From an uncultured Thermoanaerobaculia bacterium (GTDB lineage Bacteria; Acidobacteriota; Thermoanaerobaculia; Multivoradales; Multivoraceae), in assembly GCA_951812325.1 (NCBI GenBank), contig OX638294.1, positions 529,136-593,135 of the forward strand: a stretch of 64,000 nucleotides of DNA, in the 5' to 3' direction. Of the stretch, positions 3,141-28,137 are shown piece after piece (the first letter of the stretch is position 1; each line of letters starts with the position of its first letter). The notes below the pieces were generated by a model that ran no database searches, had not been told where the DNA came from, and saw only the letters and a list, made by a program, of their open reading frames with translations. The position numbers and the translations under genes are program-made.

Positions 3141-3165
3141 CGGCGGCGCATTGGGTTCCGGCCCC

Positions 3166-3330
3166 GTCACGACGCCCGCCGACTCGCCAACAGCGGCATC
3201 TTCCAGCCGCGTGGCGCCAACGCCGGGTTCCCTTCCGGCCTCGGTCACGGCGCCCGCCGACTCGCCAACAGCGGCATCTTCCAGCCGCGTGGCGCCAACG
3301 CCGCGTTCCCTGCCGGCACCGTCACGGCGC
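3166..3330. repeat. 78-bp tandem duplication (2 copies plus anchor) abutting the recO stop codon
   Basis: The string gtcacg recurs at 3166, 3244 and 3321. The block gactcgccaacagcggcatcttccagccgcgtggcgccaacgcc occurs at 3181 and 3259. The recO stop (tca at 3322-3324 on the + strand) lies in the rightmost partial unit. Confidence 0.9.
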
Positions 3331-5789: not shown

Positions 5790-6257
5790 CTAGCGGACCT
5801 CGAAGACGGCGTCGATCTCTACCGGCACGTTGAACGGCAGCTGGTTGGCGCCCACGGCGAAGCGGGCGTGCCTCCCCTTGTCGCCGAAGACCTCCACCAT
5901 GAGGTCCGAGGCGCCGTTGATCACCGCCGGGTGGTTGTCGAAGTCGTCGCTGCAGTTGACGAAGCCGCCGAGCTTCACGCAACGGACGACGCGTTCCAGG
6001 TCGCCGCCGCAGGCTGCCGCGACGACGGCCACGATGTTCACCGCGACCAGACGGGCGGCCTCCTGCGCCTCCTCCAGCGAGTAGTCGACACCCACCTTGC
6101 CCCGGTACGCCAACCGCCCGTCCTTCACCGGCACCTGGCCGGAAACGAAGACGAGCGACCCCGTGCGCACGAAGGGCACGTAGTTCGCGGCGGGCGCCGC
6201 GGCTTCGGGGAGTTCCAGGCCGAGCGCTTCAAGGCGCTCCTTGATCGTCGTGGTCAT
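5790..6257 (-). CDS. RidA/YjgF/L-PSP family protein
   Basis: 155 aa. It shows YjgF-type conserved blocks (FVSGQVPV, ARFAVGANQLPFNVPVEIDAVFEV). Confidence 0.8.
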   Translation of the reverse strand: MTTTIKERLEALGLELPEAAAPAANYVPFVRTGSLVFVSGQVPVKDGRLAYRGKVGVDYSLEEAQEAARLVAVNIVAVVAAACGGDLERVVRCVKLGGFVNCSDDFDNHPAVINGASDLMVEVFGDKGRHARFAVGANQLPFNVPVEIDAVFEVR

Positions 6258-6502
6258 CCAGGCAGACTCCTCGGCGCCTGCGAGCGCCCGATGTCGCGGG
6301 GCGGCAGGCTGCGACCCGGTGGCGTGGTCATCCCGACCGACTCCCCGGCGCCTGCAAGCGCCCGATGTCGCGGTGCGGCAAGCTGCGACCCGGTGGCGTG
6401 GTCATCCGGACCGACACGCCGGCGCCTGCAAGCGCCCGATGTCGCGGGGGGCAAGCTGCGACCCGGTGGCGTGGTCATCCGGACCGACTCCCCGGCGCCT
6501 GC
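6251..6502. repeat. 74-bp tandem duplication (about 3.4 copies) spanning the LLM stop / ridA start junction
   Basis: The string tggtcatcc occurs at 6251, 6325, 6399 and 6472. On the minus strand each unit carries ATGACCACG, the first three ridA codons. The rightmost unit holds the LLM stop in an overlapping ATGA. Confidence 0.9.
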
Positions 6503-7437: not shown

Positions 7438-10400
7438 TCAGCGTCCCGAGGCGACGATCTCAAGGGCGTCGAGAACCTTCTGCGCCTGCTTGCGGTCGAG
7501 ATACGGATGAGCGAACTGGTTGCGATAGCTCCGCAGGCAGCCGTAGCAACTGACATCGCAGCCGCAGCCGCCGGCCACCCGGCGGCGGGCGCCGGCGAGC
7601 ACCCTCATGAGGACGTCGTCGTCGTCCAGTTGCGTGACCAGACCGGCGCCGCCGGGAACGTTGTCGTACAGCACGACCGCCGATGCGTCAGGCACGCTCC
7701 CGGCGGCGATGGTGACGTTCAGGTCGTTCTGCGGAACGCCGATCGCGTCTGCGGCACCAAGGAGAACGGCGTAGGCGACCGAGTAGGCCGGCCACTGGTC
7801 ACGCAGGTCCGGGAACTCCATGCGGACGACGTCCGTGACCAACTCGTGGCCCAGCGAGAACTGTTCGAGCATTCCCCTGCACTCCCGACCGGTCGGAGCC
7901 TCGTGTTTGGCCGTGCGCTTCGCAGAGTGGGCGCCGCATGATCGGCAAACGAGGAACCCCCGACCGCCATGGCCTTCGCAGAGTATGACCAGAGTTCCCG
8001 AGGCGGCCGAACTGACACGCAACCCACAACGAGTTTGTGCGATATCGGCGTCGGCGTCGGCGAAACCCTGGAAGAACGGACGAGTGCTGTACACCCTGTG
8101 CGCTCGTCGCCGGGGAGGCTTCGGGTCCCTGAACATGGGTGTGACGAAACCAAACCGGGGAATCAGGTACTTCTTCCGCACCTGGGCTGGCGCATCGGAG
8201 CTTCCCTCGGTCCACTGTTCGAAGCTCCGCGAGTCGTCGTGCCGGTACATCCGTACCGGCCATTCCTTGCCGGACACCTTCCTGATCCCGCAAGACTCCC
8301 ACTCGAGCTTGTTCGCCACGACCTTCCCGCCCGGCGCGTACTCGGCGATCGCCTGGGAGAGGTCCCGCTGAAGAGACACGTTCAGCCCCCCGCCCCGAAC
8401 CTGCCGGGTGTGCAGCTCGACAACATCAACCGGGAAGCCGTACTTGGGGATCACGGCCTTCCGCGACAGGAACTCCAGTGTCGACCGGCCGGCGACCGTG
8501 TCCATGCGCTTCTTGACATCCTCTGCCTTTCGATACCCGCGTCGAGCAACAGCTGTCGCTTCGATCTCTCCCAGTTCGAGGTACTCCGAGCAGACCTCCG
8601 CCTCGGCGAGCCCGAGCCGGCTGTCCGGACCTCCGATGCGTTCGATCCACCGCCGGTCGCGCAGGCCCACGGCATCCGCCACGCCCTCAGGGACGATCCG
8701 GATCAGCATGGACTCAATCGACGTCGAGTTCTCTTCGCACCAAGTGGTGAAATCCCCCGCAGCCCGCGGAGCCTTCCAATCCTCGATGAAGGCGGCGACG
8801 TTCGTGAACCGCTTCCGGTGACGATGGAAGAACCCACTCAGGACGGCCGCCGCCATGTGGCGCAAGACGATGCGATCGTTTGAAAGATGAAGTCTCGGCG
8901 GATCCACATCGCCGCGGATCATGCTCGCTTCCGGATCCTCGTAGTGATGGAGGTCGTGCGGGTTGCGCCGGCAGTATGTCACCGCGAGGCCGGCCCGCTC
9001 TCCGCGTCCGGCCCGCCCAACTCTCTGGACGTAGTTGAATGGTTCCGGCGGCACGTTGCGCAGGAACACCACGTCGAGATCACCGAGGCTCACGCCCACC
9101 TCGAACGTCGTTGAGGAACTGAGGAGCTCGACCTCCCCGTTCTTGAACTTCTCCTGCAGGCGACGGGCCTTTTCCGGAGCGACCTGCGCGGTGTGTTCTT
9201 CCGCTCGCAGCCGCGGCGGCAGGCTCGGGCTCTCGTAGAGAAGCCTGTAGTGGTTGTCCACAAAGGTCCCCGGGTTCGCCGGATGCAGACCTCCGCTACA
9301 GCCGATCCGGGGACACACACCCCGGACGAAGTGCGGGGTCACCGTGGTGCAGGTGTCGCAGCGCCAGATCGGGTCGTCTCCGACCGGGTGGAGGCGCAGC
9401 CACTCCGAGCCCAGACGAAACGTGCCATCGAACTTCTCGCGAACGAGCAGCATACCGGTCGAAACCGCTGTCAGCGCTTTCCAGATCCCATAGGCCGCCG
9501 CCGTGCTCGGTTCCAGGGCCGTCGCCGCATCCCGGCCGTTCTTGCCGAGAACCCGGGGAAGGAAGTGCTTGACGAGCCCGGAAGCCCGGCTTCCCCATTG
9601 GGCAACGTGAGGGCGACCGCCCGGTTTTCCCAGGCCGTAGGCTGTCTGAGGGAGCTTGGAGACGTCCCTCCATACCGGGGCACCCTCGGTCGAAGGCAAG
9701 CGGAGAGCACGACGGGCCGGAAACGCGCTGAGGCAGTACTGAACCAGGCTCGATGCCTCGACCTCCGTGAGGTTCCAAGGTGGAGCGAGCAGCTCAGGCG
9801 GTACCGAGAAGTCCGCGGGAAGCGCGACGGTCCAGCGAACGAGACCGACACCGCTCAGGGAGATCCGCCGTTCTTCCGTGACGATCTCACCAAGGATCGC
9901 CGTCAGGACACATCGCCGGTGGGACTCCGCGGTCTCCGAGGCTCCGAACAGCCCGGCGCGCTCCCGGATTCTCCGCAGTCTGCTCGCCAGATCCTCGATG
10001 CTCAGGCCCTCTCCGGCCGCCGCCTCCCGCGCCGCCCGGAAGATCAGGTTCCGGTCGAGCAACCGACGGTAGGAGTCCTGGGCGTACCACGCGAAAAACG
10101 CCGCCTCCTGCCGACTGTCCGCGAAGGCGAGCACCTTTCGCCGCTTCTCGGGAAGCAACTCGAGCAGGGCGGTCGCGATGACCGCGTTCGGGCCGTCCGA
10201 CCCGTGGACGATTTCCTGAACCGGGTCGCCGACGCCGCCGCGACGGTAGCCGCAAGCCTCACACTGGCGGAGCTGATCCGGGTGGTCCTTGTGGGTTCGG
10301 CAGCGCACGACCTTGATTCCTGCGTCGCAGTCGCAGGTCAGATCTCGACTGGTGACCAGGCCGCAGCGCCGGCATAGTGTCCTGTTCCCTTCTTCCGAGG

Positions 10401-11685
10401 GCATGAAGAACTCGGCTCCGAAACCGGATCGCCCCGGATCGCGAACCGCCTCCCGGAGTCTTCCGCGGAGCACCTGGCCGACGTAGTAGTGCTGGCCGCA
10501 TTCCCGGCAGAGCGCGAGTTCGAGAGGCGTGGCCTTCGCCTCCTTCTCGCTCTCCCCCTCGTCGTCGCCGCGGTTGAGACGGACGACGTCGCGGCCTTCA
10601 CGGTGGACCAGGAAAGCGCCCTCGAGCGCCCTGAGGAATGCGTGATACCGACTTGCTTCTTCACCACGCTCCTCTTCGCGCTCCGCAAAGACCACGTCTC
10701 CAGACCCGAAGGGCTCGCCAAACAGAGTCTTCGCGAATTTCGCGACTGCCGCCCGGTCTTCCTCTGCCTCACTAGTCGACAGAGTGGCGCTAGTCGCGAT
10801 GCAACGGAACGGCTTGTCGCTGCCTCGACCGCCCTCGCAGATTCGCTGCTTGAGCCGCCGGATCAGCATGGCCATCTCCATCCCCTTGGCGCCCCGATAC
10901 TGGTGCGCTTCATCGAGCACCAGAAAGCGCCAGCGGGAACCTCGACCCTCATCGAAGAGCGGGCTGTCGTCGGGCCGGATCAGCAGGTACTCCAGCATGG
11001 AGTAGTTCGTCAGCAGGATGTGGGGCGGCGAATCCCGCATCTCCTCGCGGAACACGAGTTCTCCCGGAAGCCGACCCTCCTCCCTCGTCTTGCCATGACG
11101 CCATTTGTCTCGGACGTTGTAGGGCGTCTGCCCGATGTACTGGCCGAACGTCGGACGAAAAGCAGATCCCGAGGCCGCAAGCGCCCGGCAGATCTCGCCC
11201 AACCGTTCGCGTTGGTCATTCGCCAGGGCGTTCATCGGATAGAGGATCAGCGCCCGGACACCCCCATCGTCCAGCTCGCCGGAAAGGTGCTGCCGGTACA
11301 GGTGCAGGAGGATCGGATAAAGAAAACTCTCCGTCTTCCCGCTAGCCGTCCCGGTTGCCACCACGGCATTCCGGTCCTCGGCGTGAAGCAGCCTGATCGC
11401 CTGCTCCTGATGCATGTAGAGCGGCTGTTCGATCAGGGCTGGCTCAACGCCGATGCTACGGCCAGGAAACCACTCCCGCGCCAGCACTCGCGCCGAAACG
11501 CCTCGCCGGAAGTCACGGGAGCGTTCAGGAATCGGCCCCTTGAGCAGGGTTCCCTCTTCGCGAAGCGCCTGCTGGAAGGAGGCTCTGAGCGCCGGATCCC
11601 GGAAGAAGAACGAGGTCTTGAGATAAGCCTCGTAGCGACGGCGGATCCGCTCGGGCCATTCGTTGATTTCAAGCGCGCTGGGCAT
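7438..11685 (-). CDS. large DEAH-box superfamily-2 helicase with C-terminal DUF1998/MZB zinc domain
   Basis: Helicase motifs present: motif [12 protein letters not shown], motif [14 protein letters not shown], motif [10 protein letters not shown] and motif [12 protein letters not shown] Cys-rich insert sits between the RecA lobes ([25 protein letters not shown]). The C-terminus [12 protein letters not shown]...[18 protein letters not shown] is the DUF1998 four-Cys signature. The likely start is ATG 11685 ([10 protein letters not shown]), which overlaps the upstream gene's stop by 17 nt. The ORF is open to 11742. Confidence 0.85.
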
Positions 11686-14600
11686 CGAGCCACCCTCGCA
11701 ACCGATCGACGTTGTCCTGATCCACGGCAATCCGCTCCTCATCCACGGAGACCCTCGACCGCCGGATTTCGACGCGAGTCAATCCCGCCTGTTCCAGTTC
11801 GTCCGGGCTGTAGCCGACCTGCCTCCAGACACGGGGCCGTGGTTGCATCCAGGCCTTCGGCGGCGGCACATCCCAGACGCGCAACGGCTTGACCGCATGG
11901 TTCCCGAAGCTCACCAGCAGCGCTCGCTCCTTCGCCGCCGGCCGGGCCACGGCGACGTAGTCCCGGAAGTCCCGAAGGGGCACGCTCACCACCCGCCACT
12001 CTTCAACCAAGGTTGCGGGGTACTTCCTTCGGGTCACCGAGTCGAAGCCGACCCGGACTCTCCCTACCGCTTGAGGCAGACGAAGCTCCAGGCGCCGGCC
12101 CTCCTCGCTGAAGCACTGGAAGTCCTGCCGCTTGCACTCGAACCGGACCGCCTTCCAGGCCCCTGGTTCGCCGGTACCTCCGCGCATCCGCCACCACACT
12201 CGCGGAGGGCGAACAACGATTCGCACGACGCCTGAGGGCGTGGGGATCCGGTACACGGCCCGCTCGCCATCCGGGTCCGGCCTGGTACGGCGAGGACTCC
12301 AGACGGTACCGCCTCGCTTTCGACCTGGCGTTTCGGGCACTCGCCGGCCTCCTCGACCCCGGCTGTCGGCTATCAATTGCACGCTGGCCTCCCGATGCCC
12401 GGTCGCCTCCGGAAGCAGGGCGGTGGAGCGGGTGTAGCTCTCTTCGTTGATCCTGATCTCGCGGAGTTCCTCAAGGAGACGGAATTGGCCGCTGTCGCAC
12501 AAGCCGTCGTCGTCGTAGGCCCGGATGTAGAAGCGGCCCTGGCGACCGGCCAGAACGTCCGGCAGGGACTTCTCGGCCGGGTCGAAGGTCTCGCCGAGCC
12601 AACCGGACTCCCCTTCGGAACCCACGCGGACCTCCCGAACGGTCGAACCGCAGGAGAGGTTGGGGATCGTGCGAAACAGGTCGCCCTGCCGGGAGTCGTC
12701 GAAGACCCGTACGCCGGAGAGCTCGAACGCCGCGCCGACCGGGTCGAGCGGGTATCCCGCGAACCCCACGTCCCCGTCGGTCGCGTCGCCCTTCTCGACT
12801 CGGAAGTAGTGGACCAGGAAGCCATCTCCACAAGGCGACGGCTCCACCGGCGGGACGCCCAGCCGATCCCAGTCCTCGGGGGCGACCACCAGGAAACTGC
12901 CCGGACGCACGCCGCGCACCCGCCGCCCCACGCCGCTCCAATCGGCTGCGGCCCGGAAGATGAGAGGTTTGCTGCCCTCGAACAGAGGCACGTCGAACCC
13001 TACGCCGCCAGCCGTGCGCACCTTGAGGGAGCCACTGCAGGACGGAATCGCGAAGACGCCATCTCGCAGATCGAGTTCCTCGTCATCGAAGACGACCTCC
13101 TGAACGTCCAGACCGTCCGGGGCCGACAGCGCCAGGGCGAAACCCCAGCCGTCGTCACGCTCCCTGCAGATGAGCTCCGGCCGCAGAGAAGGGCGAACCC
13201 TTGTCTCCGGCAGCGGTCCGACCCCGGATCGGACCGGGAGTCCGTCCCTCCGGCCACCGATCTCGGCTACCGGACGACGCGCCGCTGGCTCCTCCGGCGG
13301 AGGCGTCTCCGGAGCGTACGGACGGGGCGCGACTGGAGGTGGATCCGCGTTTGGCCCGGTCCCCGCCGCCTGTCCGACAAGCCGCAGCTCACTCGTCCTG
13401 ATCCGGTTGCAGACGGTTCTGAACGAGGCTTCGCGCAGAGACATGGCCGAAAGACCCTCCAGAAGGTCGAGCAGTCGGGACCAGTCGGACTCAGCGAACC
13501 GGAGAGTCGGCATTCCCGCCTCCGGCGGCGACGGCGTCCCGTTCAGGAACGACCGGCGCCGGGCTTTCGCCTCCGCCACTTCCTTCTCCAGGCGCTCCAC
13601 GCGTCTCCTGGCTCGCGTCAGGTCGTCCGTCTTCCGCTCGACCCGCTCCCTCAAGCGCTTGATCCTGCTGCGGGTGCGCTCCAGATCGCCTTCCAGCGCC
13701 CTCATCTTCTCCAACACGCCGGCCCGCTTGGCCGCGCGCTTGCGGCCGTTCCCGTCGAGCCGCGTAACCGGGTCGTCGACCTCCACCAACGTCGAGAACC
13801 CGGGTGGCGCGGAACGCGCCACACGCGAAGCAGTCGGTCCGCCCGTCATCGGGCGGATCGACTGCAACGGCTGCGGGGGCTTGCGATCCGCGAGTTCGGT
13901 CAATGCCAGGAGCCACGTCGTCAGATCGGGGTGGGTGGCGATTGCCTGGAGAATCAACCACTTGCCCTCCTCCATTGCCCGCCCGAGCTCGACTTCGTCT
14001 TCCTGGTCGAGCAACGGTTCCCTGCGTACCTCTGCCTGGTACAGAGCCGCCGGGTTGAGACCCCGTTCCGGGTCGGCGTCCTCACCCGGCACGCAGGCGT
14101 CGTCCGTCCTCTGGCCTGACGTGCCGTGCCGGGCCAGTCTCCTGCGGGAGTGAGGCAGCGCGGCGCCGACCCGGGGCGCCTCCGGATCGGGTGGAATCCG
14201 CCTCTTCGGAAAAGTCCAGGGATCGGTACTCCCGTCAAGGAGGGGCGACAGGCCACGGACGAGGTCCGGGCGCCTGAGCTTGCGAAGTGCCTTGGCCTGA
14301 ATCTGGCGGATGCGCTCGCGGGTGATGTGGAACCGCTTGCCGACCTCCTCCAGCGTGTGCTCCTCACCCTCGTCGAGGCCGAAACGCATCCGAAGCACCG
14401 TCTCCTCACGCGGTGACAGGGGCCGCAGCAGGTTACCGACCTTCTCGCGCAGGTCAGCCGAGATGACCTCGTCGATCGGCGACGGCGAATTTCTGTCCAC
14501 GATGAAGTCGCCGAGATACAAGTCCTCTGCTCCGGCCAGCGCATCGAGCGACACCGGCTCCTGGCCGATCTCCATGATCTCGCGCACCCTGGCGGCGGCA

Positions 14601-15448
14601 AGACCCATGTGCTCGGCGATCTCCTTGGCCGTCGGGTCGCGGCCGAGCTCCTGGACCAGCGACCGCGAGGTGCGGGTCACCTTGTTGATGTTCTCGACCA
14701 TGTGAACCGGAACACGGATCGTCCGTGACTGGTTGGCGATCGCCCGCGTCACGGCCTGACGGATCCACCACGTGGCGTAGGTCGAGAACTTGTGGCCGCG
14801 GTGGTACTCGAACTTCTCGACCGCTGTCACCAGGCCGATGTTCCCCTCCTGGATCAGGTCCGGGAGCTGCAGGCCCCGGTTCCTGTGCTTACTCGCGATC
14901 GAGCCGACCAGCCGCAGGTTGGACACGATGAATCGATGTCTCGCCGGCTCGCGAACCGCCACGCCACGCTCCACCTTTGCCAACATCTCCCGCAACTCGA
15001 CCCGCGACACGCAGTGGCGCACCTCCAGCGCCCGGAGTTCGTCGTTGCAGTGGCACTCCGGCGCCACCTGAAGCGGGTGGATACCGCCTTCAACGCACCG
15101 GAACCGTTGGCGGATCGACTTGACCAGGGCGACCAGCCGATCGAGGTCGGAGGCGTCAAGCCCCAGCTTGACGATCAATGCCGAACGACGTTCCCCCAGG
15201 CGGCCGAGCTCGCGTTCCATCGCCGAGCGCGCTTCACGGTCATCCTCGATCTCCGCACTCAGGCGGCCCACCGACTGACGGGCGCTCGTCAGAGCCTCGC
15301 CCGCCCGCTCGACTCCTTGCGCAAGCCGGTAGAGCGACCTCAGGGCCCTCGGATTCTCCGCGACCCAGGCAGCCGCAACCGGCTCCTCGTCGACCGGCAG
15401 AGCCTCAAGAGATGGGGATGCACCCTCTGAATCCGCGGATTGCTTCAT
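11669..15448 (-). CDS. sigma70-domain fusion protein: sigma regions 2-3-4, then region 1.2, a coiled coil, and a ~440-aa module shared with the ZorD-like protein
   Basis: The sigma70 core is near-canonical: [118 protein letters not shown] region-1.2-like block follows downstream of it ([31 protein letters not shown]). The C-terminal part aligns with 23085-24360. The likely start is ATG 15448 (MKQSADSEG); the ORF is open to 15559. Confidence 0.8.
13796..13862. repeat. twin-hairpin core of the MITE-like family, embedded in-frame in the sigma-fusion CDS
   Basis: The string cccgggtggcgcggaacgcgccacacgcgaagcagtcggtccgcccgtcatcgggcgg matches the core of the 41512 element at about 51 of 61 positions by eye. 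Both stems are preserved. It is translated as [19 protein letters not shown], against [19 protein letters not shown] in the other copies. Confidence 0.75.
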
Positions 15449-15671
15449 CCTCGTGTCGGTCAGGTTACATGCGATGATGCCATCCGACCACCACGAGCGC
15501 CAGGAACCGAACTGTCCAAGGACTCCAGCCCCTCGTCTCGCGGCGGCGCGCCTGCCCAACGCCGCCGGAGTGCCTTGTGCGGTGCTAACCTGCGTCGCTT
15601 CCTCTCGCTACCGCGCCGATGAACACGATGCCCCTCCCAGCGTGGCCGACCGGCCCGAAGCTGAACCTCTC
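15449..15671. promoter_or_regulatory. divergent control region between the sigma-fusion operon and the zor operon (extent depends on the true zorA start)
   Basis: This is head-to-head gene geometry. The stretch looks locally less GC-rich (ggttacatgcgatgatgccatcc). No convincing -35/-10 pair was identified. Confidence 0.3.
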
Positions 15672-17861
15672 GTGCGTCTGAACCTCGGGGAGGCTTTTGC
15701 CGACTGGATTCTTGAGCTGGCCGGCCTGCTGCGTCACGAGGCAGCTCCCGGGTGGGTCTCGCTCGCGCTCATGGCCGGCCTGTTTGCAGCGCTGATCAGC
15801 TATTCGTGGCGCGCCCGAGGCCTGCTCAGGACCATTGCCGAGAGCAGATCCGTGATCGGCGACACCCACACTGCTTTCGACGACTCCCGGTTCATCGAGA
15901 TCAGCCAGTCCTTCAAGAAGTGGGAGAGCGTCACGAGGCAAACGGCACGTCACCGGCTCGGGGAGGCCTGGCGCGAGTTCGCCGAGACCGTCAATCGCCA
16001 GAAGGGCCTGTTCAACACGGTCAGACCGAGGGAGTTCTTCGACCGCGAACTGCTCCACATGGAGCATCGTTTCTTCGCTCAGCTCCCTGCGCTGTTCGTC
16101 TCCGTTGGGCTCCTGCTCACATTCCTTGGCTTGGTCGCGGCGCTCGACCAGACACGCGGAATCCTCCAGGAAACAGGGGTGGACACCGTGAGCGAAGGGC
16201 TCCGGAACCTGCTCCAGGTCGCCGGCGCAAAGTTCATCATGTCCCTCACCGGCCTCTTCTGCTCCATCGTTTTCGGACTTTGGTTCCGGACGCGCGAGGG
16301 GAAGATCGACGAAGCGCTGCACGGCCTGTGCGCCGACATCGAGCGGGGATTCGAGTACCGGAGCGCCGACAGCTTTCTGCTTGAGAAGGTACTCGAGGTA
16401 CTCGAGGAGCAGGGGACGCACCTCCAGACCTTTAGCACGGAACTCGTCGCCCAGGTGGCGCGGCCCTTGCGGGAGGAAATCCCCCAGGCGATGCGGGACT
16501 CAATTCGGGAAGCGATGGGGCCTGCGCTGGCCAAGTTCGAGGAAGGCGCAGGGAAAGGCCTCGATTCACTGGTCGCAGGCGTGTCGAAAACGATGAGCGG
16601 CGGTGTCCAGGACTCGGCTCGCGCCATCAGCGAGACGATGGACAGGGTGGGCCAGACCTTGAACGACGTCGCCTCCCGGCTGGACGACTCGGCCGTATCC
16701 ATGGGCGGACAGATGGACCATGCAGTCGGCGCGCTCGCCGGCGAAATCCTCTCCCTCAGAACTGCCATGGCCGATTCGACGGAAGCTGCAAGGGAGAACC
16801 TGCAGGACGGCGCGCAAGGGATGCGCGCGACGATGGAAGAAGCGCTCCAGGAGATTCGCAAGAGCACCCAGGCCGGTGCGGATGGCATCGACAAAGCAGC
16901 CACGGCGATGGCCGCGGCAGTGGCCGGTTCAACGCACGCGGCAAGCGAGAACCTGCAGGACGGCGCGCAGGGAATGCGCGCCACGATGGAGGATGCTCTT
17001 CAAGAGATCCGCAAGAGCACTCAGGCCGGCGCGGACGGCATCGACCACGCAGCCACGGCAATGACCGCGGCGGTGGACAAGCTGGCGACCCGAGCTGACG
17101 AGGCGTCGAAGTCGGCGTTCGCCGCGGGGAGCCGGACGATCGAGGAAGCAAGCCTACGTGCTGTCGAGGGCCTGGGAGCATCCGCGGAAGCGGTTTCCCA
17201 GGCGATGAAAGGGATGGCCGGCGATGTTCGCGACCGCGTAGGCGAGGCCTCTTCCGCCATTGGCAGCGACCTGCTCGACCAGTTGAAGGACCTTGCCGCC
17301 GCGATCGGCGAGTTGCAGACCCGGATCACGTCGTCCGTCGGAACCGTCGACCGCTATGCCGAATCCCTCGATAGCGGCACACGCACGATCACCCGGGCGA
17401 CGGCCGGACTGAGCTCCGCGAGTACGGAACTGACGCAGGCCGCCCTCCCTGTTCGCGGCGCGGTGTCGGATCTGGTCGAGGCGAACCGTTCCATGGAACA
17501 GAAGGTCTCGACCACGGCGGAAGCAATGGAGTCGGGCGTTCGCCTGATCACCCAGCAGACTGTTGCCACGTTGAGATCGACGGCAGACGCGGTCCGGAAC
17601 TCTCAGGCCGCCGCGGAGGAAACCCGGAGATCACTTGAACAGGTGACCCGGAAGTTCCAAGATCTGGTCGAGCGGTTCGGCGGTCTCGACCATCGTCTGG
17701 GCGAAGCGTGGAAGAAGCTCGAAGCGGACGCGAGAGCCAGTTTGGCTGAGTTCCGCCGCTTCGAGGAGGAGTTGAACCAGGAGTTCGCCCGGTCGCTCGG
17801 AAAGCTGCAAGAGGTCATCGAGCAAGCGGAGCCCTTCACACCGCGAAACGGAAGGTACTGA
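15453..17861 (+). CDS. zorA: ZorA-like MotA/ExbB-family stator protein with long helical tail
   Basis: TM helices are present ([20 protein letters not shown]; [21 protein letters not shown]; [21 protein letters not shown], MotA/ExbB-like). They are followed by about 500 aa of Ala/Glu/Gln-rich helical tail. The gene lies directly upstream of a MotB/OmpA-like gene. The start is uncertain: GTG 15453 would leave no promoter space, and GTG 15672 (VRLNLGEAF) is an alternative. Confidence 0.75.
16794..17075 (+). repeat. in-frame 153-bp (51-aa) tandem duplication inside the ZorA tail
   Basis: [43 protein letters not shown] starts at 16794. [43 protein letters not shown] starts at 16947. There are 3 aa differences in 43. 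Confidence 0.9.
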
Positions 17862-17867
17862 GAGCGA

Positions 17868-18707
17868 ATGGCGATCGGGTCGCGGGCTCGACGGCGAGGC
17901 GAGGAGCGGCAGGATTCCGCGTTCGTCACGGTCACGGATCTCACTGTCTCCTTCCTGTTCGTCCTCCTCATCCTGCTGGCTTTCTTCGCTTCGGAGTTCC
18001 GACCCGACGAGGAAGAACCGGATGCCGAGCCGGAACCGCTGGCGGCCTACCTTGAGAGCGCAGCCGCAACGCGGCTCCAGATCCTGGAGTTCATCGCGGA
18101 GCGGCTTCGAGCGAACCTCCCCGGCCTTCGTATCAGCGTTGTCGCCGCGGACGGCATCATCCGCTTCCGCAGCGACGAGCTCTTTCGGCCCGGGCAGTGG
18201 AGAATCCCCAAGGGCAGCATGCCCGAACGAGTGGCCCGCGCCCTCGGCGATGCACTGCTCGACACCCTGCCCTGCTACACGATCGGCCCAGCCGCGGCGA
18301 TGCCGCAGGACTGCGAGGACGTGCTTGCCGCGATCGAGACGATTCAGATCGAAGGCCACACCGACGATCTGCCACTCCTGCTGGCCCTCCAGGAGCGCGA
18401 GAGCATGAAGGACAATCTGGATCTCTCGGCGCGGCGCGGGGCGGAGACCCTGCGGGCGATGACTGACGGCTATCGCCCCGAACTGATGGACTACAGGAAC
18501 ATCCGAGGCGAGCCTGTGCTGTCATTCGCCGGCTACGGTTCGATGCGGCCGATCGACGACCGACCGACGGACACCGGAAGGGCCGCAAACCGCAGGGTGG
18601 ACATCCGTTTCATCCTTCAGACGCCGCAGAATCTGGCTCAGATCGAGCGGATCCGAGCGCGGCTCACGGCGCAACGCGAAGGACTGCCGCCCGTGGCAAA
18701 CCGTTGA
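17868..18707 (+). CDS. zorB: ZorB-like MotB/OmpA-family stator subunit (peptidoglycan-binding)
   Basis: 279 aa. It has a single N-terminal TM helix with a conserved acidic residue (FVTVTDLTVSFLFVLLILLAFF). It also has a C-terminal OmpA-like domain (IQIEGHTDDLPL, NLDLSARRGAETLRAM, FAGYGSMRPI, NRRVDIRF). It starts 7 nt after the zorA stop. Confidence 0.8.
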   Translation: MAIGSRARRRGEERQDSAFVTVTDLTVSFLFVLLILLAFFASEFRPDEEEPDAEPEPLAAYLESAAATRLQILEFIAERLRANLPGLRISVVAADGIIRFRSDELFRPGQWRIPKGSMPERVARALGDALLDTLPCYTIGPAAAMPQDCEDVLAAIETIQIEGHTDDLPLLLALQERESMKDNLDLSARRGAETLRAMTDGYRPELMDYRNIRGEPVLSFAGYGSMRPIDDRPTDTGRAANRRVDIRFILQTPQNLAQIERIRARLTAQREGLPPVANR

Positions 18708-18714
18708 CGGCGCT

Positions 18715-20166
18715 TTGGCAATGAGAGGCAAGCGCTTCGACCTGGAAAGCGAGAGTCGGCTCTCTTCCCTGCTCGAGCCGGATCGCCCGGGACAGAACCG
18801 GAGCGGGCGGCAGCCGGCACGGCGGATTGGCGAGCCGGTCGCCCTCCGGCGCGCGGCCCGGCAAGTCGACCAAGCGTATCCCGACATCGATCCCGACGTG
18901 AGGGAGGAAGACCGTGAACAACTGGTCCGCGAGCTCGACCGGCGACAACGGTCGGACGACTGGCGCGACTACACTTGGGCCGATCTGCAGAGGGCTGCCC
19001 GGGCGCTGCTCCAGCCTGGCCAGAGCCGGCAGCGGGGACGCTCTGGCCGGTGGAACATCACGCCCAGCCGCTCAAGAAATGCCCTGCACCAGCAGCCCGC
19101 GTACCGACCGCTCGTTGGGTTCCTGCTCGCACAGGTCGACGAGCAGGCCAAGCCTCGCTTCCTGCGCACGATGTGGCGGCTCTACCTGTCGACCTTCAAT
19201 AGACACTCCTCGCTCACGCAACAACTGGCTCGCCGACTCGATGCCTGTGTTCGGCACACGTTGCTGCCGATTCGGGGGGCAGTGGATCTCGGTATCCTGA
19301 AGCCCAGATCCGCAGTCGAGAACCTCGCCGCCCGGATGGCCGCCGACCCGAGTCCCTTCGAGTTCATCAAGGACATCGGCATCGAAGCGCCCCACGGCGA
19401 GGGATTGATGGCGCAGGTGCACGAACGGTTCGTTCGCCAGCATGGGGCAACGCAACTCCGACGCCACCAGGAAGAAAGCTCTCGCCTGCTTTACTGGATC
19501 GCGCCGCCCAATGCTCGCCCGATGGAAGCAGGGGCCGAACTCGGGATCAATGCCCTGCTCGCTCCCTGGGAGCGCTCCGAACCCGGCCGGGAACTCCGCA
19601 AGAGGCTGGAGACCGCGCTGATTCGCGGATTCGGCGATCCCAGGATCATTCGCACCGGCGCCTGGTCCCGCTCTAGACCCGATGCCCGAGCAGTCATGAT
19701 GCGTTGGCTGGCCGGCGAGACGATCGAGGTCTTCTTCGAGATCATCTCCAAGGCCGTCACGTCCCACATGTGGGCGGATCGCAGAGGTCTCTGGACGGAG
19801 TTGTACCGAGCGAGCCGCATCCACGAGGCGTGGTTCGCGTTGAGTCCTCGCGGTGAGGAAGCGGCGAGAAGGCTCAGAGGGAACCAGGACGTGCCGCTCG
19901 CCTACGGCAGAAACGAATCCCGGAACTCCGGGGACAGGGACAAGTGTCTTCTAGTAATGAGGATCGACCGCGATCGCGTCGTCGTCGAGGGTTCGCACAG
20001 CTTCAAGACTCACGTTTATCGCCGCGGCGACCGCCGGAGTGTCTCGCTATACGAGGACACCTACGATTGCGACAATGTTCGTGACCACGGGCGGACCGGC
20101 CACGCCAACGCCTTCGTCCACCACTCGGCCTGGGAACGGCGAGTTCGCGCGGCGCTTGACGGATGA
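18715..20166 (+). CDS. zorC: ZorC-like protein (candidate EH-signature domain)
   Basis: 483 aa. It sits in the ZorC position between zorB and the SNF2 gene, and its stop overlaps the next start (ATGA at 20163-20166). The C-terminal VVVEGSHSFKTHVY and AFVHHSAWERRV resemble the E-x-SH / H-x-x-W pattern I recall for EH-signature domains. This is not verified by HMM. ATG 18721 is an alternative start. Confidence 0.55.
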   Translation: MAMRGKRFDLESESRLSSLLEPDRPGQNRSGRQPARRIGEPVALRRAARQVDQAYPDIDPDVREEDREQLVRELDRRQRSDDWRDYTWADLQRAARALLQPGQSRQRGRSGRWNITPSRSRNALHQQPAYRPLVGFLLAQVDEQAKPRFLRTMWRLYLSTFNRHSSLTQQLARRLDACVRHTLLPIRGAVDLGILKPRSAVENLAARMAADPSPFEFIKDIGIEAPHGEGLMAQVHERFVRQHGATQLRRHQEESSRLLYWIAPPNARPMEAGAELGINALLAPWERSEPGRELRKRLETALIRGFGDPRIIRTGAWSRSRPDARAVMMRWLAGETIEVFFEIISKAVTSHMWADRRGLWTELYRASRIHEAWFALSPRGEEAARRLRGNQDVPLAYGRNESRNSGDRDKCLLVMRIDRDRVVVEGSHSFKTHVYRRGDRRSVSLYEDTYDCDNVRDHGRTGHANAFVHHSAWERRVRAALDG

Positions 20167-23100
20167 CGGCCATCGAACACGCGGTGCAGCCCGACCGCGT
20201 GCTCTTTCGAGCCATCCGCTCCCGGACCCGATCACAGCGCCAACCCGGCCAGCGAGAGCCGACCGATTCCGGCTTGTCGGTCGACGCCTGGGTCGGCGGC
20301 GATCTTGCGCGTTGTTCCGCGCTAGCTGCGCTTCGCAGATTCGGGCACGAGCATCCCGGCGCAGTTGCGGTCCGGGATAGAGAGATCTCCGCCTCGCACG
20401 CCGCAGTCGCCGCTCTCACCCCCACGCAGGCAAGCGCCCTGAACCTCCCCGAGCGCCCGCCCTTCTCGCTCAAGCTTGACGTCAGGGGCGTGATCGGCAG
20501 CGGGAGTTTCGCGCTCCGGACCGAGTGGCAGCGAGGCGGGCTGCCAGTCACGACACGTCGGCTGGGCGCCTTCCTCAACAGCGGACACGGCGACTTCCTG
20601 ATCCCCGAACCCCTTTTCTCCGCAGTCGAACTCGCTGCCAACTTCGATGCCGCTTCGACCGACATCTCCGGCCACTGGAGCGGGTTAGCCCGATTCCGCC
20701 GCCTGTTCGACGACCCGGCAACCGATAGCGCAGTCGAGATGACGCCCTTCCTCCGGGGTATCCGGATCTTCACTGTCGGGGCCTTGACCCTCGACGTTCG
20801 ACAGAGCGTCGACGGCGTCGAGTTCGATCCGATTCCGCTAAGCGCAGAGGCAAAGGAAGGAGCAACCGAAGACGCCAGGGAGATAGACGATCCGGAGTGC
20901 GTTCTGCCGAAGGACATGCTGAAACGTTTTCAGGCCGACCCAAGGACCGGCTTCTCCGCCTTCTCGACGGCCAAGCGGAGCTACCTGCTCGGCGCCAATA
21001 CCTACGTCCTCGTCGACGAGGACCTGCTCGCCGCCCTCGAGGTTGTCCGTGAGAAGCAGCAGGCGCCGCCCGAAGATCGACGGGGTTTCGCTGCGAATCC
21101 GGGCGCAGCGATCGCGGAGCGGCTGGCCGAAAGGGTGAAGCGGGAAAACCCGGATGCCGACGCGATCGACCTCGGAGAGGCGATCGAGGACCGGACGTCG
21201 CGAGTGTTCATCGAGACCGCTCACTACGCCAGGTGCGCCGAGGAAGCGGGAGTCTGGGAGCGCCCGCATGCGAAGGACCCACCCGATGGTTCGGGCGCCC
21301 CCCGGCCCGAGGAGATTGCGGAACAGGGCGATACGCAGCGGGCGCCCGAACTCGAGTCTCCCGGCGACATCGACCAACCTCGTACGGGACCGCCGCCCGC
21401 CCGCAGAAACGAACTCGACGATGCCGACGCTCTGCTGCTACTCGAACCGCGAAGGGAACTCGTGGAAGAGACTCCCTGGCCGGCGCGGGTCGAGACCAAG
21501 CCGTATCCGCACCAGATCGCCTGCTTCGAGTGGCTCGTCGCGTCCTGGGCAACGGGCCAACCAGGCGTGCTGAACGCGGACGATCAGGGACTCGGCAAGA
21601 CGCTGGAGACGTTGGCATTCCTCGCTTGGCTGCAGAACGAAGTCGATGCGGCCGGCGAAGGACCGGCGGACCTGAGTTGCCGGGCGCCGATCCTCGTCGT
21701 GGCGCCCACCGGGCTGCTTCGCAACTGGGAGACCGAGGTCGTTCAGCACCTCGGGGCCACCGGATTGTTCGCGGCCCATCGAATCTACGGCTCCTTCCTC
21801 AATCTGTACCGAAAACCCGGCCTCCACGGCGCAGATACGGGGGACGGTCGCAGCCGACTTCACTTCAAGCCCGTCCGCACAGCGGTCGAGAGAGACCGCG
21901 GCCACCTGCAGTGGATGCTCACGACCTATCAGACCCTGACGAACTACCAGCAGAGCTTTCGTCAGCTCTACTTCTCGACCGTCGTGTTTGACGAGATCCA
22001 GATGGTGAAGAACCCGGCAACGGCCCGCGCCCGGGCGGCGCGCTCGGTCCAGGCGGACTTCCGTATCGGGCTGACCGGAACGCCGATCGAGAACCGGACG
22101 ACGGACGTGTGGGCGGTGATGGAAGTCCTCGCCCCCGGCCGTCTGGGTTCGCTGCGCGACTTCGAAGCGCGCTACGGCGAACCCTCGAAGGAAAGCCTGG
22201 ACGAGCTCCACGGCCGACTCTTCGAACCGCAGCCCATCGCCGGGGACGGCGAGGCGCCACCGCTCGCGATGAGGCGTCTGAAGGAAAGCGTGCTAGCCGG
22301 CCTGCCGAGGAAGTCCCACACTCGTTACCGCGAAACGATGCCGCCGCGGCAGGCAACGGCCTACAACGAGGCCGGGAATCTGCTCCGGACCGGCGAGAGA
22401 GGCGCGGCCTTCAGGACGATTCACCGGCTGCGCGCGGTCTCTCTGCACCCCGACGACCCAAAGACCGCAGGTGGCACAACAGACGCCTACATCGAAGCCT
22501 CCGCCCGGCTGGCCAGGCTCAGTGCGCTACTCGACGACCTCCACGAAAAGGGCGAACGGGTGCTGCTGTTTATCGATGACCTCGACATGCAGGCGTTTGT
22601 CGCCCAGTGGCTGCGCTCCCGCTACGCCCTTGGCGAAGTCCCGATCATCAACGGTTCGACTCCCGTGCCCCGGCGGCACGAACAGATCCGCCGCTTCCAG
22701 AAGCATGCGCCCGACAGCCGCGAGTTCGACGTCTTCATCCTCTCGCCCCGAGCCGCGGGCTTCGGCCTCACTCTGACGGCGGCAACCCATGTCATTCACC
22801 TCACCCGGTGGTGGAACCCCGCCGTCGAAGAGCAGTGCAACGACCGGATCTACCGAATCGGGCAGACCCGGGACGTGACCGTGCATCTGCCGATGGCGAT
22901 TCACCCGGCGGAGCCCGAACGATCGTTCGACCACCTACTCGACGAGTTGCTCCGAAAAAAGGGGGAACTCGCCCGCTCGGCCCTGTGGCCTCCGGCCGCG
23001 TCGGAGAGCGAACTCGGACAGATGATGGAGGAGCTTCTGGGAACCGGCCCGACCGTTGACTCGCTGCCCCCGGTTGTCCGGGCCCCGGAACTCATCTGCC

Positions 23101-24575
23101 GGCAGACCTTGGACGAACCGCCCTGGACTCTGGCGTTGTCGGCGCCTGAGGACGTGGAGGTGGACGAGGTTCTCTTCGACGACGATCCTCTGGAGCGGTT
23201 TGAAAAGGACTGGGAGATACCGTCCTGCGCCGGCAGATTACACGTCTTGACCGCCGACGCCCGGGCGCACAGCGTCGAGCTCTTCTCCGGAACGCCGCTC
23301 ATCTTCAAGTTGCCCGTCAACTGGGAGGGGCCGGGGCGTCGCGTCCGAGCGACGGGGCGAGGTCACTATCTCGTCGTGGCGCCCGAAGGCTGGCGGCGAA
23401 CGGGACACGTACCGGTCGCGCCTGATCCCTGTGGCGACGGCTTCCTGGCGCACTACTTCCACTTTGACGCTCACGGGCCGGCCGATGAACAGCAAGGCTT
23501 CGAGGAGTGCCCGCTCCCTTCCGTCGGTCCCGGCTTCACGCTGGGCGGTGACCGGGTCTTCGATGACGCCAGGGACGGTGGACTCTTCGGCGAGACACCG
23601 GGTTTGAATCTGGCCCCTGAGGTTCGAGCGGCCTGGGTCGGCATGGCGGATGGCAACGGCTGGCAGGGCGAGACGTTCGATCCGCGCACGACGGAGCTGT
23701 GGGAGGTGCTGGGTGACCGCGAGGGCTCGTTCGTCCTTCGGGTGTACGACGAATGGGGCCTGCGCGACAGCGGCCGGTTCCGCCTGTTGCGGGGGCTTCG
23801 AGAGATCGAGGTCGCCGGCGAGCCCTACACGGAGGGCACTCTTCTTGTACCGGGCGAGCGGGGCCAGCGCCCGGTGGTCGTTCGGCTTAGAGCCTCCGCA
23901 GCCTGCACGACCGGCCCGGATTGGGTCTTCAACTCAAGGACAAGCACGCCAGCGCCGGACGACGAGCAAGTCGATCTCCCGGTTGCGACGAACTCGGGCG
24001 CGGCGATAGTCGTCGTTCGACCGCCGCGTATCTGGTGGCGGCTCGAAGCGGTCCGGGGTGATATCGGCAGATGGGGCGCCAAGCCAATCGAACTGACGCG
24101 CGAGGAATTCATCACGGCGGCGGAGAACCAGGAGGCGCTTGTGGTGCTGCTGCCTCGAAGAGTGTCGGGCGTTCGCGCTGGTTTCGACCCGGGGGACACC
24201 CGAAGCTATCCCGCAAACCTGGAGGACGGCAGACGCCTTGCACGGCTACCGCTTCTCGCTTTCCGTGACTACAGGGCGGTGGCCCAGCCCATGCCCGCGG
24301 AGACGACATTCCTTGTGATCGTTGAGACGCACACGATGACGCCGATTCGGCTGCGCGAGGAGATTCTCCCCGCGGGAGCAACCGACGAAGCCGTCGCCGT
24401 TGCTGAAACGTCGAGGAGCGAACAGGAGGCCGAAGCGGGCGCATTTCCGATCGAATCGCCGGATCCCGTCGATCGACGCGTGAGTCGTCGGCGCAAAGCG
24501 AATCGAGCCCTGAGCGTTTGGACGCTCAGGTTTCTGAAGTGGGCCAGGTCTTGGAGCTCTTCCCGGCGTGAATGA
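20163..24575 (+). CDS. zorD: ZorD-like SNF2-family helicase with a ~480-aa C-terminal extension
   Basis: SNF2 motifs present: YPHQIACFEWLV, NADDQGLGKTLETLAF, VVFDEIQMVKN, LTGTPIENRTTDVW, FILSPRAAGFGLTLTAATHVIHLTRWWNPAVEEQCNDRIYRIGQTRDV. The last ~480 aa (from PELICRQTLDEPPW) are paralogous to the C-terminus of the sigma-fusion protein. Confidence 0.75.
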   Translation: MTAIEHAVQPDRVLFRAIRSRTRSQRQPGQREPTDSGLSVDAWVGGDLARCSALAALRRFGHEHPGAVAVRDREISASHAAVAALTPTQASALNLPERPPFSLKLDVRGVIGSGSFALRTEWQRGGLPVTTRRLGAFLNSGHGDFLIPEPLFSAVELAANFDAASTDISGHWSGLARFRRLFDDPATDSAVEMTPFLRGIRIFTVGALTLDVRQSVDGVEFDPIPLSAEAKEGATEDAREIDDPECVLPKDMLKRFQADPRTGFSAFSTAKRSYLLGANTYVLVDEDLLAALEVVREKQQAPPEDRRGFAANPGAAIAERLAERVKRENPDADAIDLGEAIEDRTSRVFIETAHYARCAEEAGVWERPHAKDPPDGSGAPRPEEIAEQGDTQRAPELESPGDIDQPRTGPPPARRNELDDADALLLLEPRRELVEETPWPARVETKPYPHQIACFEWLVASWATGQPGVLNADDQGLGKTLETLAFLAWLQNEVDAAGEGPADLSCRAPILVVAPTGLLRNWETEVVQHLGATGLFAAHRIYGSFLNLYRKPGLHGADTGDGRSRLHFKPVRTAVERDRGHLQWMLTTYQTLTNYQQSFRQLYFSTVVFDEIQMVKNPATARARAARSVQADFRIGLTGTPIENRTTDVWAVMEVLAPGRLGSLRDFEARYGEPSKESLDELHGRLFEPQPIAGDGEAPPLAMRRLKESVLAGLPRKSHTRYRETMPPRQATAYNEAGNLLRTGERGAAFRTIHRLRAVSLHPDDPKTAGGTTDAYIEASARLARLSALLDDLHEKGERVLLFIDDLDMQAFVAQWLRSRYALGEVPIINGSTPVPRRHEQIRRFQKHAPDSREFDVFILSPRAAGFGLTLTAATHVIHLTRWWNPAVEEQCNDRIYRIGQTRDVTVHLPMAIHPAEPERSFDHLLDELLRKKGELARSALWPPAASESELGQMMEELLGTGPTVDSLPPVVRAPELICRQTLDEPPWTLALSAPEDVEVDEVLFDDDPLERFEKDWEIPSCAGRLHVLTADARAHSVELFSGTPLIFKLPVNWEGPGRRVRATGRGHYLVVAPEGWRRTGHVPVAPDPCGDGFLAHYFHFDAHGPADEQQGFEECPLPSVGPGFTLGGDRVFDDARDGGLFGETPGLNLAPEVRAAWVGMADGNGWQGETFDPRTTELWEVLGDREGSFVLRVYDEWGLRDSGRFRLLRGLREIEVAGEPYTEGTLLVPGERGQRPVVVRLRASAACTTGPDWVFNSRTSTPAPDDEQVDLPVATNSGAAIVVVRPPRIWWRLEAVRGDIGRWGAKPIELTREEFITAAENQEALVVLLPRRVSGVRAGFDPGDTRSYPANLEDGRRLARLPLLAFRDYRAVAQPMPAETTFLVIVETHTMTPIRLREEILPAGATDEAVAVAETSRSEQEAEAGAFPIESPDPVDRRVSRRRKANRALSVWTLRFLKWARSWSSSRRE

Positions 24576-27991: not shown

Positions 27992-28137
27992 CAGCCGCAC
28001 GCCCCCGCCGGGCGCCGAAGGCCGCACGGTCGACGCGGTAACGCTCCACCGGCGGCGCAAGCAGCAGCCGCACGCCCCCGCCGGGTGCCGAAGGCTGCAC
28101 GGTCAACGAGGTAACGCCCCACCGGCGGCGCAAGCAG
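27956..28137. repeat. 73-bp tandem duplication (about 2.5 copies) of the TerC 3' end
   Basis: The string gtcgacgcggtaacgctccaccggcggcgcaag occurs at 27956 and 28029, with a diverged copy (gtcaacgaggtaacgccccaccggcggcgcaag) at 28102. The TAG stop in copy 1 becomes CAG in the later copies. Confidence 0.9.

Follow-up and report, generated by a model that had tools for sequence, protein, structure and literature searches.

The window analysed here is a stretch of 64,000 nucleotides from contig OX638294.1 of an uncultured Thermoanaerobaculia bacterium (assembly GCA_951812325.1). On its minus strand lies a gene, hereafter the sigma-fusion gene, whose product carries a circularly permuted primary sigma factor (RpoD) at its N-terminus, followed by a spacer, a module of immunoglobulin-like (Ig-like) domains and a tail resembling ribosomal protein L13e. 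The gene is flanked downstream by a gene for a DruE-like helicase and, divergently, by a type I Zorya set. The features of the sigma-fusion gene are listed below, with protein positions in amino acids (aa).

11669 to 15448, minus strand: sigma-fusion gene, encoding a 1259-aa protein with a permuted sigma head, spacer, Ig-like module and L13e-like tail
14231 to 15250, minus strand: sigma block 1, aa 67-406, corresponding to RpoD 216-571 (C-terminal half of the non-conserved region, NCR, and regions 2.1-4.2)
14720 to 14929, minus strand: Sigma70 region 2, aa 174-243, with two conserved motifs intact (Pfam, alignment)
14471 to 14695, minus strand: Sigma70 region 3, aa 252-326 (Pfam)
14273 to 14428, minus strand: Sigma70 region 4, aa 341-392, with its conserved motif intact (Pfam, alignment)
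14108 to 14230, minus strand: disordered linker from the old C-terminus (after region 4.2) to the old acidic linker before region 1.2; predicted local distance difference test score (pLDDT) below 50, aa 403-470
13859 to 14107, minus strand: sigma block 2, aa 448-530, corresponding to RpoD 90-171 (region 1.2 and the start of the NCR)
13964 to 14044, minus strand: core of the Pfam region 1.2 match, within sigma block 2
13571 to 13804, minus strand: sigma block 3, aa 549-626, corresponding to RpoD 167-239 (NCR coiled-coil stretch)
13226 to 13570, minus strand: spacer from sigma head to Ig module, low-confidence and Pro/Arg-rich
11876 to 13225, minus strand: Ig-like beta-sandwich module, aa 742-1191
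11681 to 11821, minus strand: L13e-like helical tail, aa ~1210-1256

The longest open reading frame (ORF) of the gene runs over 11669 to 15559 on the minus strand (1296 aa) and holds all three peptides quoted in an earlier, sequence-only reading of this DNA. A database gene call with an identical protein (P0001) begins at the ATG at 15448, for a length of 1259 aa; we use this 1259-aa numbering, which equals the ORF numbering minus 37. The sequence-only reading had placed the permuted sigma at 13880-14940. These coordinates cover only aa ~170-523, and the gene does not encode a sigma factor by itself: the sigma part is the N-terminal half of a protein that also comprises the Ig/L13e module.

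The order of the sigma domains was established by several profile searches. In ORF numbering, Pfam placed Sigma70_r2 at 211-280 (64.7 bits), Sigma70_r3 at 289-363 (78.3 bits) and Sigma70_r4 at 378-429 (62.6 bits), followed in the same frame, about 75 residues past the end of region 4, by Sigma70_r1_2 at 506-532 (25.5 bits against a gathering cut-off of 22, E=1.3e-5). The NCBIfam RpoD models matched the protein strongly, in two stretches, and phmmer against PDB aligned aa 137-405 with RpoD 347-616 and aa 451-514 with RpoD 84-147, the latter span holding region 1.2 and the initial NCR helix. When aa 1-740 served as query, the genuine primary sigma factors of the lineage were retrieved, a very uniform group of 574-aa Acidobacteriota RpoD proteins. 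A profile built from 39 of these gave three matches to the window protein: RpoD 216-571 at aa 67-406 (473 bits), RpoD 90-171 at aa 448-530 (46 bits, E=1e-15) and RpoD 167-239 at aa 549-626 (25 bits, E=3e-9), well above anything chance would produce. Region 1.1 gave neither a Pfam Sigma70_r1_1 match nor a match to RpoD profile positions 1-89; the disordered linker sits in its place. By these alignments, the window protein carries a circular permutation of the lineage's own RpoD in which region 1.2 through region 4.2 are all represented, in the order RpoD ~190-574, disordered linker in place of region 1.1, RpoD ~100-240/260, spacer, Ig-like domains and L13e-like tail. The claim of the sequence-only reading that regions 2, 3 and 4 come first and region 1.2 with the start of the NCR follows is thus borne out by Pfam, by phmmer against PDB and by the RpoD profile, with the coordinates of the Pfam region 1.2 match, above its cut-off, confirming the identity of the second block.

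The same arrangement was found in 10 sequences that share the breakpoints: the window protein, P0002 (=L001/L005), P0003, P0004, P0008 (=L003), P0012, P0015, L006, L007 and L009, with P0015 and L009 near-identical to each other. Their sources are independent assemblies, both metagenome assemblies and complete chromosomes of metagenome-assembled genomes (MAGs), recorded as Vicinamibacteraceae, Holophagales and Thermoanaerobaculia. All nine other orthologues are single ORFs with the domain order of the window protein; linker length differs among them, and the Pro/Arg-rich spacer is shorter in the window protein than in its orthologues. Across all 10 fusions, the RpoD profile matches first over RpoD ~185-225 to 572 and then over ~101-112 to 234-243, in three matches for the window protein and two for the others. 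Within the window, 14063-14233 has no in-frame stop, and GC content at codon position 3 peaks in the gene's own frame across the linker. A frameshift or assembly join between 14062 and 14266, which would have undone the sequence-only reading, is therefore excluded for practical purposes, since independent assemblies share both the ORF and the breakpoints, and the permutation itself recurs in nine further orthologues.

The alignments also point to how the permutation arose. About 50 residues of the NCR coiled coil (RpoD ~190-240) occur at both ends of the sigma part in every orthologue (in the window protein the overlap is 216-239), and by column alignment both blocks contain lineage-specific NCR motifs such as LLALTELA(D)RK and EIDRLEEKVSSLIV. 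An NCR overlap of this kind is what permutation through tandem duplication and subsequent trimming classically leaves behind, in good agreement with the origin proposed by the sequence-only reading, a tandemly duplicated rpoD cut back at either end. The repeat is clear with the RpoD profile only; plain BLASTP of the N-terminus against the region after 1.2 gave E=0.06. Because these NCR motifs are shared and each fusion is closer to the 574-aa clade than to other Acidobacteriota RpoD, the donor of the sigma module is, on sequence grounds, the lineage's own 574-aa RpoD.

Next, we compared the captured module with its source. The window protein is 74% identical to 574-aa RpoD (e.g. P0164) in regions 2-4. 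The chromosome of L009 encodes a normal 574-aa RpoD (P0216) that is only 60% identical to the co-resident fusion in regions 2-4, which argues that the capture is old and that the fusion is not the housekeeping sigma factor; the genome of L008, a locus whose fusion lacks regions 2-4 (see below), likewise encodes a normal RpoD (P0214). Judged from these sister genomes, the window genome being viewed over 64 kb only, the fusion is not the housekeeping sigma. The sequence-only reading had left the recency of the duplication to a comparison with housekeeping RpoD, and at ~60% identity in the sister genome it is old rather than recent. Pairwise identity among the fusion sigma modules averages 65% (minimum 55%) versus 98% in the 574-aa RpoD clade. 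Between the window and its orthologues, identity is 56-66% for the sigma module, 51-67% for the Ig module and 65-83% for the helicase.

This divergence is unevenly distributed. The window protein retains 79% of the RpoD-invariant positions in regions 2-4. By region, retention of RpoD-invariant residues is as follows.

Regions 2.3, 4.1 and 4.2: 92%, 90% and 87%
Regions 2.4 and 2.2: 82% and 81%
Second half of region 1.2, region 3.0 and region 3.2: 70%, 69% and 68%
Regions 2.1 and 3.1: 66% and 64%
C-terminal half of the NCR (block 1) and first half of region 1.2: 62% and 36%

The core-binding and promoter-binding motifs are thus the best-kept parts of the sigma module, as the sequence-only reading had it. 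The best-kept surfaces are those for the beta-prime clamp helices (region 2.2), the beta flap (region 4), the single-stranded -10 element (regions 2.3-2.4) and the -35 element (region 4.2), whereas parts used in initiation (the region 3.2 finger and the first half of region 1.2) and the auto-inhibitory region 1.1 are relaxed, remodelled or lost. The universal DPVRMYLREM motif in the first half of region 1.2 has given way to a fusion-specific xALYDAEIRRE, and nine of the 10 fusions share a D-to-N change in region 2.4 (AIADQ to AIANQ).

One relative has gone further. P0006 (=L002/L008; 996 aa; 10001-12991 in L002) has cleanly lost regions 2.1-4.2, the linker and the first half of region 1.2 and keeps both NCR pieces (RpoD 234-339, then 126-255), the Ig/L13e module, the helicase and an intact ORF. 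A 431-aa sigma consisting of regions 2-4 only (P0218) was considered as a split or intermediate form and rejected on account of its unrelated housekeeping context.

An AlphaFold2 model of aa 1-740 (mean pLDDT 65) has ordered sigma2, sigma3 and sigma4 domains, with the region 3.2 loop and the 403-470 linker disordered and the relocated region 1.2 and NCR start predicted with confidence (pLDDT 79-88). Foldseek matched the sigma model to sigmaA/RpoD chains of holoenzyme structures with probability 1.0. Very long helices at aa 23-86 and 566-637 (pLDDT up to 94) correspond to the two copies of the duplicated NCR stretch. These helices probably pair into a stalk, which would place the new termini at the tip of the NCR, leading into the Ig/L13e module.

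Residues ~742-1259 are unrelated to sigma factors. In the AlphaFold2 prediction (pLDDT 78.8) they form about five beta-sandwich domains and, after these, a small helical tail, and Foldseek of this Ig/L13e model against PDB found only generic tandem-Ig proteins (TM-score ~0.1-0.2), the DruH structure 9TUD being probably too recent for the library. The L13e match of the tail is weak in the window protein (24 bits); typical family members reach 38-52 bits against the NCBIfam L13e model, and three of the four scanned exceed the Pfam L13e cut-off. An exhaustive profile search defined a family of 877 representative clusters (475 at E<=1e-30), mostly of 700-850 aa with the module at the C-terminus, annotated at source as 'hypothetical protein' only. 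PADLOC holds no model for this family, Pfam recognises no domain besides sigma in the heads of its long members, and no relatives of the module were found on viral contigs. In the literature we found no paper joining L13e with defence, nor one on DruE-like helicases with an L13e-tailed partner. The Ig/L13e module probably binds nucleic acid, judging from its analogy to DruH and to a ribosomal RNA-binding domain. A second, sigma-less Ig/L13e gene, 35-37% identical, was seen in L017 (the MAG of L005) and in L025 (the chromosome of L009); the L017 copy comes with a full helicase of its own, and the only helicase sequence detected in L025 is a fragment.

The 3' end of the sigma-fusion gene is overlapped by the helicase gene:

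7438 to 11742, minus strand: DruE-like helicase of the YprA family, 1434 aa, with DEAD, Helicase_C and MZB/DUF1998 domains

This pairing is general. In 23 of 25 genome-scan loci, drawn from Acidobacteriota, Latescibacterota, Binatia, Dehalococcoidia, Spirochaetia, Gammaproteobacteria and others, this same kind of large helicase lies directly downstream of the module gene. PADLOC matched the window helicase to DruE1 (2e-144) and DruE3 (1.6e-141), covering the DruE profiles partly, and its closest solved relative is 9TU7 (E. coli DruE per its depositors; E=1.4e-78, compared with 1.6e-18 for MrfA/YprA). The E. coli relative DruE has been described as loading on 3' single-stranded DNA, and the YprA/MrfA relatives as repair helicases; a 2025 census of YprA-family helicases makes no mention of an L13e/Ig partner or a sigma fusion. 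Membership of the partner protein in the DruH family was rejected at the sequence level: with PADLOC, neither the window protein (threshold E<=10) nor any of five typical family members (threshold E<=1) matched DruH, and the module profile found no DruH chain among PDB sequences. Since the partner has no detectable sequence relation to DruH, we call the system Druantia-III-like rather than a member of Druantia type III.

Upstream, in the opposite direction, lies the Zorya system:

15453 to 24575, plus strand: type I Zorya, divergent from the sigma-fusion gene, with ZorA at 15453-17861, ZorB at 17868-18707, ZorC at 18715-20166 and ZorD at 20163-24575

All four type I genes are present by PADLOC (ZorA1 1.6e-141, ZorB1 1.6e-72, ZorC1 3e-98, ZorD1 3.9e-286). 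The window ZorD (1470 aa) carries, after its SNF2 helicase, a paralogous Ig/L13e module at about 22971-24572. BLASTP aligns ZorD aa 960-1397 with the Ig module of the sigma fusion (44% identical over 450 residues, E=8e-97). With the family profile the match grows to aa 937-1470, taking in the L13e-like tail and reaching the end of ZorD. The ZorD of the syntenic locus L001 has 1155 aa and no module. These observations suggest that the Ig/L13e module is an accessory that can move between helicases and that it physically links Zorya with the Druantia-like pair; in E. coli, co-localisation and synergy of Zorya and Druantia III are documented. Zorya adjoins the fusion in the window and at L001/L005, L003 and L006 and is absent at L007, L009 and L002, which makes it an optional neighbour. 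Around 15448-15700, the longest ORF of zorA, which begins at 15453, overlaps head-to-head with that of the sigma-fusion gene, which extends to 15559; profile matches point to a zorA start ~70 codons later, which would leave a divergent promoter region of ~200 bp. A simple promoter and terminator scan of 11400-15900 detected no sigma-70-like promoter, which is weak evidence. Inside zorA, at 16768-17076, a 153-bp unit occurs twice (85% matches) in the part encoding the ZorA coiled-coil tail, and the protein segment is correspondingly doubled.

The whole island is bordered on one side by an acetyl-CoA hydrolase gene and on the other by a series of luciferase-like, MgtE, RecO and MutL genes, a position conserved among relatives. 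Elsewhere in the window we noted six short tandem arrays (994-1170, 3156-3330, 6249-6502, 27955-28137, 28996-29192 and 26006-26475). Five have units of 73-78 bp in 2.3-3.4 copies (91-94% matches) and one a unit of 118 bp in 4.0 copies (98%); the consensus differs for each, and some stand at gene boundaries. A strong spike of AT skew (0.31) at 38000-40600 coincides with three overlapping long ORFs, of which the minus-strand one encodes a TRAP transporter DctM-type membrane protein, and is ordinary given the hydrophobic codon bias of the DctM gene.

Taking these data together, we propose that the sigma part serves as a head that binds RNA polymerase (RNAP) and/or promoter or opened DNA, mounted on the partner subunit of a Druantia-III-like system. 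We put the probability of this reading at roughly 50%. In one Acidobacteriota clade, the partner captured a copy of the host rpoD, permuted by tandem duplication and trimming. The head, lacking the autoinhibitory region 1.1, would still bind the RNAP core (beta-prime clamp helices, beta flap) and/or -10/-35-like DNA, and this binding would place a nucleic-acid-binding module and a 3'-5' helicase at initiation complexes or opened DNA on invading genomes. Sigma-70 without region 1.1 can reportedly bind promoter DNA without core, as Dombroski and colleagues are said to have found in the 1990s. Binding rather than initiation is the most likely function because the binding surfaces are the best kept and the parts for initiation have been loosened, reshaped or lost; selection probably does not act on productive initiation.

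Several points weigh against this proposal. The sigma module evolves fast, with 11-32% of the RpoD-invariant residues altered across the fusions, and in the near-identical L009 and P0015 the first Trp of the WW pair in region 2.3, involved in -10 melting, is changed to Asn. P0006 is intact without regions 2-4, so the sigma core is dispensable at least there. The unchanged -10/-35 determinants offer no obvious way to discriminate self from non-self. From the model we infer, rather than observe, the packing of region 1.2 on sigma2 and the pairing of the NCR helices. Finally, the syntenic chromosomal site by recO/mutL and the lack of a family match on viral contigs leave room for a role outside defence.

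Among the alternatives, the sequence-only reading had suggested a decoy for phage anti-sigma factors. In a form adapted to the whole protein, the head would mimic host sigma as an integrated guard, and phage anti-sigma or RNAP-hijacking proteins that bind it would trigger the Ig/L13e partner and the helicase. DruH of Druantia III has indeed been proposed as a phage-protein sensor with a variable head and Ig-like domains, and in the present family the heads also vary, with no recognised domain besides sigma. Rapid change is common in sensor surfaces, and the sigma module changes far more rapidly than housekeeping RpoD; region 4 is among its best conserved parts. Region 4 is the usual target of anti-sigma factors such as AsiA. 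However, a mimic should track the host sigma, and identity is ~60-74% in most members (up to 85%, P0004/L007); the universal DPVRMYL motif of region 1.2 is replaced; the conserved -10 single-strand-binding residues of region 2.3 would be unneeded in a region-4 decoy; and the phages of these uncultured Acidobacteriota have no known anti-sigma factor. Nothing in these data favours a decoy over plain tethering to RNAP or promoters, and we regard it as unlikely, albeit as the chief rival of our proposal.

A working alternative sigma factor, which would form holoenzyme and transcribe the defence island or other genes with the Ig/L13e part as a regulatory or anchoring appendage (as assumed for MzaA), appears improbable. 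Such a role would agree with the presence of all of regions 1.2-4.2, with the largely intact -10, -35 and core-binding motifs of the window protein and with the precedent of a sigma-70-family protein as a named component of a candidate defence system (MzaA). Yet the relaxed or remodelled parts are the ones relevant to initiation, namely region 3.2 (the sigma finger), region 2.1 and the first half of region 1.2, and the promoter-recognition residues equal those of RpoD and so would give it no regulon of its own. An essential regulator would hardly be expected to show a W-to-N change in two members or to lack regions 2-4 in P0006, and the promoter scan, weak as it is, detected no sigma-70-like promoter. 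The loss in P0006 could instead mark the sigma part as a decaying relic or scaffold of a chance capture, in which only the NCR helices matter, as a stalk, and regions 2-4 drift towards loss. P0006/L002, which retains the NCR pieces but no regions 2-4, and the fast overall evolution of the module both agree with this, but nine to ten divergent lineages (down to 55% identity) keep regions 2-4 uninterrupted, and invariant positions are kept at 81-92% in regions 2.2-2.4 and 4 against 62-69% elsewhere, which is selective rather than uniform decay. We consider a relic just as improbable as a working sigma.

Very improbable, in our judgement, is a function outside defence, in which the protein pair would be a housekeeping system for DNA repair or transcription-coupled work and the sigma head would tether a YprA-type repair helicase to RNA polymerase. 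The repair role of the YprA/MrfA relatives, the synteny of the Acidobacteriota locus near recO and mutL, the viral-contig result and the good conservation of the helicase (54-83% identity) speak for it. Against this, the helicase is much nearer to DruE than to MrfA, the system is patchy across phyla, the same genomes carry second, sigma-less paralogues (L017 with L005, L025 with L009), and Zorya comes and goes alongside, with a ZorD that has borrowed the Ig/L13e module. Patchiness, paralogous copies, a variable Zorya and a module shared with ZorD are hallmarks of defence islands. An artefact (frameshift, assembly join or fused gene call) has a negligible chance of explaining the gene: the linker is of low complexity and a second frame is also open across it, but 10 sequences from independent assemblies agree in ORF and order, and codon-position-3 GC is consistent.

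A bolder reading is that an immune system took a copy of the primary sigma factor of its host and permuted it for mounting on a sensor or adaptor, either to guard RNAP against phage takeover, as an integrated decoy in the manner of plant NLRs, or to load a Druantia-type helicase at transcription bubbles in invading DNA. We advance this reading only tentatively and think it doubtful as it stands. If it were true, the Ig/L13e module on the adjacent ZorD would mechanistically couple Zorya to the sigma-fusion system. The locus hints that phage defence and the host RNA polymerase may be connected in a way not described before, with one clade wiring its helicase partner to the transcription machinery; should the head bind RNAP or sense RNAP hijackers, this would be a new principle of sensing or targeting. 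Sigma-70 factors are among the most studied bacterial proteins. With its new chain ends in the NCR and a linker for region 1.1, the permuted one constitutes a natural experiment on which connections between sigma domains are required. The analysis further defines an uncatalogued partner family (Ig-like domains with an L13e-like tail, 877 clusters) for DruE-like helicases, and the module common to the Druantia-like system and ZorD bears on the recently reported Zorya-Druantia synergy.

How does this protein compare with known systems? With the primary sigma RpoD (574 aa, e.g. P0164) it shares homologous regions 1.2, NCR, 2, 3 and 4, with the core-binding, -10 and -35 motifs kept. Unlike RpoD, it is permuted, has ~50 NCR residues doubled, lacks region 1.1, has the DPVRMYL of region 1.2 replaced, evolves about ten times faster in its sigma module and is fused to ~620 more residues. 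Of the features that define group 1 sigma factors, it has regions 2-4 with conserved motifs and lacks region 1.2 ahead of region 2, region 1.1 and a housekeeping role. We found no literature report of a naturally circularly permuted protein of the sigma-70 family.

Transcription-factor folds in such systems have precedents in MzaA (by name only) and in the TBP genes of TALON/TOTE. MzaA, of the candidate MZA system (NCBIfam NF041931, PADLOC PDLC02203), likewise has a sigma-70 region 2-4 module in a defence-system protein, and both MzaA profiles match the window protein in their sigma part. The NCBIfam match scores 331.7 bits against a cut-off of 800 and covers profile positions 447-716 of 726 only; the PADLOC match covers positions 419-657 of 683 only. 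In the MzaA profile, the sigma part is C-terminal, after ~446 positions and with ~10 following, and the region 1.2 block of the window protein did not match that profile. Among the genes scanned with PADLOC there were no MzaB-E neighbours; these genes comprise the DruE-like helicase, ZorA-D and otherwise housekeeping genes. An identity with MzaA was rejected given the score under the cut-off, the partial profile match and the different architecture and neighbours. TALON/TOTE similarly took a DNA-binding fold of basal transcription into a conflict system with a YprA helicase, but there the fold is TBP rather than sigma, in a separate gene, with a helicase of a different clade and with nuclease and TPR-CSD partners.

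A further parallel is Druantia type III. Both are two-gene operons in which a partner gene precedes a large YprA-family helicase with DEAD, Helicase_C and MZB domains. In published cryo-EM work, DruH consists of a globular head, several subdomains of Ig-like type and, at its C-terminus, a domain binding single-stranded DNA; the partner here is built along similar lines, its head being followed by several Ig-like domains and by a C-terminal domain that plausibly binds nucleic acid, and its locus, too, adjoins Zorya. The differences lie in the partner, which here ends in an L13e-like domain and bears a sigma head, in the helicase, which at 1434 aa is ~670 residues shorter than the 2108 aa of Druantia III, and in the neighbouring Zorya, which is of type I instead of type II. 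The system is a Druantia-like helicase pair with an uncatalogued partner family that bears a sigma factor in one clade of Acidobacteriota.

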